From NCBI RefSeq assembly GCF_016026235.1, contig NZ_CP065613.1: a stretch of DNA of 64,000 nucleotides; one strand, written 5' to 3'. Under the pieces are notes generated by a model that was not told the origin of the DNA, did no database searches, and saw only the letters and a program-made list of their open reading frames with translations. This document shows positions 60,287-61,198 of this stretch, piece after piece. The first letter of the stretch is position 1, and each line of letters begins with the position of its first letter. The position numbers and the translations under genes are program-made. Source of the stretch: Escherichia coli (GTDB taxonomy: Bacteria > Pseudomonadota > Gammaproteobacteria > Enterobacterales > Enterobacteriaceae).

Positions 60287-60302
60287 TGACTGGTGTTAGA
60301 TT

Positions 60303-60602
60303 GCCTGATGCGCTACGCTTATCAGGCCTACGAAGAGCGTGCAATATATTGATTTTGCAAGATTTTGTAGGCCGGATAAGGCGTTTGCGCCGCATCCGGC
60401 AGTTGTGCGGCGGTGCCTGATGCGACGCTGGCGCGTCTTATCATGCCTACAAAACTGCACTCAACCGTAGGCCGGATAAGGCGTTTACGCCGCATCCGGC
60501 AGTTATGCGCAGATGCCTGATGCGACGCTTTGCGCGTCTTATCATGCCTACAAAACTGAACTTAACCGTAGGCCGGATAAGGCGTTTACGCCGCATCCGG
60601 CA
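60303..60602. repeat. REP/BIME cluster downstream of ybbP (at least five palindromic units)
   Basis: Alternating GCCTGATGCGACGCT...GCGTCTTATCA(G/T)GCCTAC and GTAGGCCGGATAAGGCGTTTACGCCGCATCCGGCA units. Confidence 0.85.
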
Positions 60603-60703
60603 TGAACAGTGTGCATTTTGGCAATAAATCTGAAACCAACTGTCATGTCGGTTTTTTAAAGGCCGAAGGTGGTAAACCTTCGGCCTTAGCTACGTTTCCT
60701 CAG

Positions 60704-60787
60704 TTATTCAATAAACTGACGGATCAGTTCCAGCAGCGCGATTAGCGCCTTAAGCACGATGAGAACTTTATCGAGAAAAGTTTTCAT
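60704..60787 (-). CDS. candidate type I toxin: 27 aa hydrophobic/amphipathic peptide MKTFLDKVLIVLKALIALLELIRQFIE (DinQ/TisB-like)
   Basis: Hand-translated ORF with strong SD AAGGGAG 6 nt upstream of ATG, SD embedded in perfect palindrome CTCCCTTAAGGGAG; central ALIALLELIR segment resembles DinQ as I recall it; not in the ORF track (under 60 aa). Confidence 0.45.
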   Translation of the reverse strand: MKTFLDKVLIVLKALIALLELIRQFIE

Positions 60788-61046
60788 CCGTTGCTCCCTT
60801 AAGGGAGAAAGACAATCACAGCTTACCCTTACGTTGCCTGTAACTATGATTTTCTTCATGTGCTAGATGAGGACTGCCTCTCTCCAAATTAGAGCACCAG
60901 AATCAGCACCACCTGTATCCTGACCAGGACTTAAAAGTACTTTTCCGCACTGCGGTAATCCCTTGAGGCAGTATCACTACTAGCGTCGGGATTGTATCGC
61001 CAACATAGCTGTTTGAATATGTAGGCATCCTGACTTATAATTCACT

Positions 61047-61137
61047 TGCTAGATGAGGACTGTTTCATTTCTGCCCGGAACCACCAAGTCTTGGGCGGAA
61101 AAAATAAAAAAACCGACTGTCATGTCGGTTTTTTTAT
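61047..61137 (+). ncRNA. candidate antitoxin sRNA (about 90 nt), divergent from the toxin ORF; its 5' end carries a 16 nt box identical to 60861-60876 and hence complementary to the minus-strand toxin leader
   Basis: Near-consensus sigma70 promoter TTGAAT (61013-18), 17 nt spacer, TATAAT (61036-41); transcript would start about 61044-61048 and end at hairpin AACCGAC-TGTCAT-GTCGGTT plus 7 T (61111-61137). Confidence 0.45.
61111..61137. terminator. bidirectional Rho-independent terminator (A-tract, hairpin, T-tract) shared by selU (minus) and the candidate sRNA (plus)
   Basis: AAAAAAACCGAC TGTCAT GTCGGTTTTTTT read directly. Confidence 0.75.
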
Positions 61138-61198
61138 ATCTGTATTCTGGTGCAACCATTCTGTTCTCACGACAATCGCCGTTTCAGAATACCGCCCA

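Follow-up and report, generated by a model that had tools for sequence, protein, structure and literature searches.

A dinQ-like type I toxin–antitoxin module in place of rhsD at the ybbP–selU junction of Escherichia coli

Introduction

What occupies the junction between ybbP and selU in Escherichia coli genomes that lack rhsD, and how did the two genes come to lie so close together? In K-12 MG1655, the annotated gene order is ybbP–rhsD–ybbC–ylbH–ybbD–ylbI–ylbG–selU. The site, known as Rhs locus 3 and placed between ybbA and ybbB (selU), varies in Rhs presence/absence across strains (Jackson et al. 2009; PMC2935791, Table 3 and Fig. 3), with rhsD (b0496 to b0503) present in strains W, K-12, and B and absent from Crooks (Archer et al. 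2011; PMC3032704, Table 6). A sequence-only reading of the DNA analyzed here, a 64,000-nt stretch of E. coli contig NZ_CP065613.1 (the window), used the same K-12 map and claimed that the rhsD–ybbC–ylbH–ybbD cluster is missing, that REPs and a candidate toxin–antitoxin (TA)/sRNA module lie in the remaining gap of about 0.9 kb, and that this small module may be what occupies a variable junction in rhs-less lineages.

Much of the setting is known already, namely the presence or absence of Rhs at this site, the existence of dinQ-like (dql) genes, and the dinQ label that PGAP assigns to the toxin gene discussed below. Among papers on rhsD, ybbP, or selU, we found none describing a dinQ-like module as an alternative occupant of the rhsD site; its recognition as such is a small descriptive addition and does not define a new kind of system. 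The main value of the analysis lies in annotation, in that a "candidate TA/sRNA" becomes a second type I toxin of the DinQ family, paired with a dedicated antitoxin of the AgrB family, and in a quantified view of four alleles at the junction across 5,426 genomes.

The ybbP–selU spacer contains no Rhs DNA

The window ORF list places ybbO (55796–56605, minus strand), tesA (56595–57251, minus), and ybbA (57189–57875, plus) ahead of ybbP (57872–60286, plus; an ABC transporter permease with an 804-aa ORF), and allS (62362–63288, minus) and allA (from 63518, plus) beyond selU/mnmH (61199–62293, minus; tRNA 2-selenouridine synthase, with a 364-aa ORF). The convergent genes ybbP and selU form the conserved flanks of a spacer of exactly 912 nt (60287–61198) between their stop codons. 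By blastn, window positions 55001–60289 align to K-12 up to 522833 at 98.98% identity (the MG1655 ybbP region) and positions 61197–64000 align from 530130 onward at 99.04%, such that K-12 homology ends 3 nt beyond the stop codon of ybbP and resumes 2 nt ahead of that of selU, with 907 nt in the window versus 7,296 nt in K-12 between the two breakpoints.

The K-12 interval at 522834–530129 has no blastn homology in the spacer, in which nothing can be assigned to RhsD/Rhs, nor did blastn detect any remnant of Rhs, ybbC, or ylbG within the 912 nt; the ORF list contains no spacer ORF longer than 88 aa. The site and its two convergent boundary genes are thus the same as those of Rhs locus 3 (RhsD) in K-12, but the window has unrelated DNA there and no Rhs sequence. 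The K-12 map of the earlier reading agrees with the MG1655 annotation, and the claimed absence of the rhsD cluster survives comparison with that genome, in which rhsD does occupy the junction and the gap is not identical. This absence is a comparative fact, to which a chance test is not applicable.

Adjacent to ybbP, the spacer holds a REP/BIME array (60300–60612) that consists of an initial REP and three tandem units of ~100 bp, as delimited by Rfam, repeat, and strain alignments. The REPs that had been read from the sequence are borne out by two Rfam matches to naRNA4, which is REP-derived (79.1 and 77.2 bits; gathering threshold, 59.5), and one to ES036 (40.4 bits), and repeat analysis of the spacer marks the array through repeat families D1/D2 and inverted pairs I1 to I4. 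Both hallmarks of REP/BIME elements are present, i.e., inverted REP pairs and multiple copies in the genome (the REP portion of the query has a median of 36 match sites per genome). When aligned with 042, O145:H28, AR437, and E1V33, the window has two extra BIME units, at about 60367–60567, a difference that indicates local expansion of the array in the source lineage.

A DinQ-family toxin gene with an AgrB-family antisense RNA

Next to the array lies a dinQ-like type I toxin–antitoxin module of 567 bp (60617–61183), which is an indel relative to "empty" B2 junctions. Its ends were set by the empty junctions of UTI89 and SCU-111, in which GCATGAACAGCGTGCA is directly followed by CAGAATCCCCC; in the window, the corresponding edges read GTGCA/TTTTGG on the left and CCGTTT/CAGAATACCGCCC on the right. 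The candidate module of the earlier reading is therefore real, and it is now recognized as a paralogue of dinQ/agrB. It is colinear with the K-12 dinQ–agrA region at ~67% DNA identity and, like dinQ–agrA–agrB in the gor–arsR spacer of K-12, combines a toxin gene with a divergent, nonoverlapping upstream sRNA in the same order and orientation; it differs from that system in residing at another locus and in having one agr gene and not two.

The toxin ORF (60704–60787, minus strand; ATG start, TAA stop) encodes the 27-aa peptide MKTFLDKVLIVLKALIALLELIRQFIE, which matches the NCBIfam model NF041472 (toxin_DinQ) with 40.9 bits (cutoff, 30; E value, 1.8e-10) and scores 24.5 bits against the DqlB model NF041473, under its cutoff of 35. 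PGAP labels the ORF dinQ in RefSeq genomes (WP_349808740.1), and Pfam has no model for DinQ-type peptides. As in K-12 DinQ (MIDKAIIVLGALIALLELIRFLLQLLN), the 27-aa window peptide contains the core ALIALLELIR, but its ORF starts with ATG instead of GTG, and the peptide has three additional residues at the N terminus and three fewer at the C terminus. A GC-rich hairpin 3′ of the ORF (60659–60687, minus), recognized by sequence reading and a minimum-free-energy (MFE) fold, is the putative dql terminator and aligns to a position equivalent to that of the K-12 dinQ terminator hairpin.

Divergently from the toxin gene, an AgrB-family antisense sRNA gene (61049–61137, plus strand) matches Rfam RF02891 over the full-length model (53.6 bits; gathering threshold, 40; E value, 9.3e-8). 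It is preceded by a sigma-70 promoter, TTGAAT-17-TATAAT (61013–61041, plus; 10/12 consensus match), which is the sole promoter-like site flagged in the interval by the promoter scan, and it ends in a strong intrinsic terminator with a 14-bp stem and a T-run (61104–61137, plus; terminator scan). The toxin 5′ untranslated region (UTR) repeats the sRNA 5′ end (D4; core, 60855–60876; 22 nt, 91%), and since this repeat lies within the 5′ UTR, the sRNA is predicted to be antisense to the dql mRNA, with its target at 60860–60903 (minus; direct repeat and RNAduplex). The module thereby shares with dinQ/agrB a peptide that matches the DinQ model, a divergent and nonoverlapping upstream sRNA of the AgrB family, and complementarity between the sRNA 5′ end and the toxin 5′ UTR.

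Pairing energies were computed by RNAduplex from the 5′-terminal 36 nt of every sRNA; full-length RNAs gave overlong duplexes that could not be told apart. The dql mRNA pairs with its cognate agr-like sRNA at −47.7 kcal/mol (33 bp) and with K-12 AgrB at −33.2 kcal/mol, while the dinQ mRNA pairs with its cognate AgrB at −62.8 kcal/mol and with the agr-like sRNA at −38.3 kcal/mol, against −24.4 ± 2.9 kcal/mol for shuffled sRNA controls. Cross-pairing between AgrB/dinQ and the module partners is thus predicted to be 10 to 25 kcal/mol weaker than cognate pairing, which suggests that the sRNA/target pairs of the two DinQ-type systems have co-diverged, with the cognate pairs still predicted to be the best. 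Such co-diverged pairs open any cross-talk between two paralogous type I systems within a single cell to direct testing.

At its left edge, the module retains a duplicated remnant of the agr-like terminator hairpin (60625–60657, plus), identified through the 25-nt direct repeat D3 (60633–60657 versus 61110–61134, 96% identical); the terminator scan also flags a terminator-like hairpin at this edge. The duplicated terminator segment extends over 25 to 35 nt (60625–60657 versus 61102–61134). This copy suggests that the module was excised as a segment from a tandem agr–dql–agr array.

Regulation and relationship to known dql systems

The predicted toxin mRNA resembles that of dinQ in its Shine-Dalgarno (SD) hairpin: in the MFE fold of the modeled mRNA, the SD sequence GGGAG pairs with CUCCC in a small sequestering stem (60794–60807, minus strand), the K-12 dinQ counterpart of which is CUCCAUCGCAUGGAG. 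Such a hairpin has been described for dinQ by Kristiansen et al. 2016 (PMC5066626). In-silico 5′ truncations of the dql mRNA leave SD accessibility unchanged at 0.25 to 0.30 and do not reproduce the dinQ-like opening at +44. A putative dql −10 box, TACAAT (60991–60996, minus), aligns with TATAAC upstream of the K-12 dinQ LexA box, and from it we infer a promoter with a TSS near 60983; the assignment follows from alignment alone, and the simple promoter scan left the site unflagged.

The module also differs from K-12 dinQ in having no LexA operator. The K-12 dinQ LexA box matches at 15 of 20 positions with an intact CTG..CAG (K-12 locus L002, 1981–2000), whereas the LexA scan of the module returned only a single 11/20 site with a broken core, located over the −35 element of the sRNA promoter, so the LexA operator that characterizes DinQ-family toxin promoters is missing here. 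Because no operator is recognizable, the module's dql is probably LexA independent and outside SOS control, and the PGAP name "damage-inducible type I toxin DinQ", which the missing LexA box leaves unsupported, is probably misleading for this copy.

By homology with dinQ/agrB, the sigma-70 promoter of dql would give rise to a toxin mRNA of ~340 nt with a long 5′ UTR and a hairpin-sequestered SD, and a divergent Agr-like sRNA of ~89 nt would probably be made constitutively. The first ~25 to 33 nt of this sRNA would then pair with the 5′ UTR and block either accumulation of the active mRNA or its translation, and the 27-aa hydrophobic peptide, if made, would insert into the inner membrane. We infer this mechanism solely from homology and sequence features.

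The same study (PMC5066626) describes dql genes on Enterobacteriaceae chromosomes and plasmids, some of them co-resident with dinQ, and characterizes a set of 14 dql sequences with sigma-70 promoters, terminators, and SD sequences, which diverge most over the initial ~40 nt of the 5′ UTR. The window module likewise diverges most over this part of its 5′ UTR. Its relatives on plasmids, of the DqlB type, are found on 1,663 mostly conjugative plasmids and are more distant: they share ~70% identity over just half of the module, and, as noted, the window peptide scores under the DqlB cutoff.

Copies of this kind also occur outside Escherichia. Enterobacter asburiae TN152 (L042, ~6369–6516) encodes a peptide containing ALKALIALLELIRQFVD that is closer to the module's dql than K-12 DinQ is. 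Many Photorhabdus and Xenorhabdus genomes contain copies of the KAFIDTAIIVLKALIALLELIRAFLK type, in many cases several to a genome, and two Photorhabdus loci (L011 and L046) have two tandem dql copies each.

Decay and conservation of the module

In about 10% of the genomes with the module (~140 of ~1,322), a 108-nt deletion removes the toxin start codon, the SD sequence, and part of the 5′ UTR. The deletion lies between two short repeats of the form GATGAG(A/G)AC (GATGAGAAC and GATGAGGAC) and, in E. coli C4 (L052), corresponds to window positions ~60757–60864; its carriers keep the sRNA gene, which would be left as an orphan antitoxin. A derivative of the enteropathogenic strain E2348/69 has an IS481-family element (L055, 10580–11690; window position ~61006–61012) that separates the dql promoter from the −35 element of the sRNA promoter; the insertion is flanked by an AGCTGTT target duplication and leaves both module genes intact. 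Together, the deletion and the insertion show that the module is dispensable and sometimes decaying.

These same lesions lend some weight to the view that the module is a nonfunctional relic, i.e., silent and nontoxic intergenic DNA that merely hitchhikes, as does its absence from 75% of E. coli genomes. We consider this unlikely, since the ORF, the SD sequence, the sRNA promoter with its 10/12 consensus match, the terminator, and the complementarity between sRNA and target are all intact in the window. Moreover, a nucleotide alignment of the toxin ORF from six genomes (the window, 042, E2348/69, O145:H28, AR437, and E1V33) contains only synonymous differences across divergent lineages, one protein accession recurs across unrelated strains, and the predicted co-divergence of sRNA and target from agrB/dinQ, with cognate pairs still best, likewise runs counter to a relic.

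A second IS481-family sequence is found in the Rhs allele. In K-12, 320 nt of ylbG (L001, 13646–14017) align with an IS481-family transposase at 94.7%, so that the Rhs island terminates on its right in an IS481-family fragment. The possibility that ylbG and the insertion in the E2348/69 derivative reflect one event was rejected, their orientations being opposite and their insertion points different.

Four alleles at the junction

Allele-specific BLAST queries against 5,426 complete E. coli genomes gave the distribution of junction states. The Rhs island, detected by the K-12-type ybbP–Rhs left junction, is present in 2,907 genomes; the dinQ-like module in 1,332 (1,314 of them near-complete), conserved at 98 to 99%; an Hcp-Tle1 effector island in 574; and the exact empty-site junction in 549 (including UTI89, 536, ATCC 25922, 83972, and APEC). 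The four alleles sum to 5,362 genomes, or 98.8% of the sample, which bears out the claim that the junction is variable (accessory). ylbG directly adjoins selU in 2,906 genomes, which is essentially the Rhs count and leaves the Rhs genomes without the module; on this adjacency and the allele sums, which come from separate queries, Rhs and the module appear to be mutually exclusive alleles. A 24.6-kb junction query, half of whose matches were to plasmid IS1 (the reference strain has two IS1 copies), served only to provide examples of alleles.

As to what replaces Rhs, the earlier suggestion of the small module as the occupant in rhs-less lineages holds for about half of the genomes concerned, 1,332 of the ~2,519 rhs-less complete genomes (~53%), and fails for the rest, in which the Hcp-Tle1 island (~23%) or an empty junction (~22%) is found. 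The Hcp-Tle1 island, a cassette of ST131 and its relatives made up of Hcp-ET (an Hcp-Tle1-like phospholipase) and DUF2931 genes, is another alternative occupant of the ybbP–selU spacer, but this T6SS effector/immunity island measures 4.2 kb, has no sequence relationship to the module, and is not present in the window.

Carriers of the module include 042 (phylogroup D), the derivative of E2348/69 (phylogroup B2), and O145:H28. Escherichia sp. E1V33, the GTDB representative of a non-coli species, has an identical peptide at the same ybbP–selU site, with flanks that are 97.5% and 95.3% identical to those of the window, and also has the canonical dinQ. The canonical gor–arsR dinQ locus was matched in 5,422 of the 5,426 E. 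coli genomes; the module is therefore an additional, second DinQ-type system in its carriers and not a relocated dinQ.

The absence of rhsD in the window is ordinary strain variation at the published Rhs locus, as opposed to a deletion event or an artefact, and the spacer is very probably one allele of a multistate polymorphic site, consisting here of a BIME/REP array and the dql module, with which the rhsD island is mutually exclusive. Homologous recombination in the flanks, which are ~99% identical, presumably swaps one allele for another.

A further, joint reading would treat the spacer as a dedicated "toxin cassette" site, in which three unrelated toxin systems (two of T6SS effectors, Rhs and Hcp-Tle1, and a dinQ-like type I TA that is LexA independent) would strictly exclude one another, with dql as the older resident that might stabilize the locus or resist replacement and with an sRNA orthogonal to AgrB. 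The module would be the older resident because a non-coli Escherichia shares it and because it occupies the indel point of the empty site, and orthogonality of the sRNA, if true, would allow independent control of two DinQ-type toxins per cell; taken jointly, however, these propositions are improbable.

The compact junction could instead be secondary, an ancestral rhsD island having been deleted from this lineage, in which case the module would be no alternative allele. Rhs is indeed the commonest state (2,907 of 5,426), and O157:H7 TR01 demonstrates that two haplotypes can be joined, in that its Rhs island and ylbG are followed by 49 nt identical to the right flank of the module. We nevertheless regard this history as very improbable, given that the 912 nt retain no remnant of Rhs, ybbC, or ylbG and that the DNA in their place is unrelated to Rhs and well conserved among the 1,332 genomes. 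The same module occupies the same site in 042, E2348/69, and O145:H28, and its occurrence in a separate Escherichia species representative, together with the missing Rhs remnants, argues against simple loss of rhsD. In addition, the AT-rich ends of the Rhs island begin 3 nt beyond the stop codon of ybbP, a pattern to be expected from an acquired replacement, and TR01-type junctions are rare (no more than 18 genomes). Collapse of a repetitive Rhs core during assembly, although multicopy Rhs cores can break or collapse in short-read assemblies, is hardly conceivable as the source of the short junction, since the full module recurs between ybbP and selU in 1,314 finished genomes and the spacer is a unique sequence unrelated to Rhs.

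The multistate site also includes less regular junctions. In TR01, the DNA beside selU is of the module type and not of the K-12 type (12001–12049 of L004, equivalent to window positions 61150–61198); this junction is a rare recombinant, partial module matches being confined to at most 18 genomes. Genomes of ST131 and its relatives encode in the spacer a 667-aa Hcp-Tle1-like phospholipase fusion followed by three DUF2931 genes (L006, 4600–8821), and the 3′ end of selU differs in these ST131-type genomes (1,107 nt versus 1,095 nt). Empty junctions range from 58 to 140 nt, the longest being that of SCU-111, which keeps one BIME (140 nt; L010, 14703–14842). The 58-nt spacer of UTI89 (L009, 12816–12873) looks chimeric, its left 28 nt corresponding to one arm of an ST131-type hairpin and its right 30 nt to a BIME-type right end. 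The sequences of the empty junctions thus imply a probable history of successive replacements and deletions. In IAI39 (phylogroup F), the region has been rearranged by IS elements.
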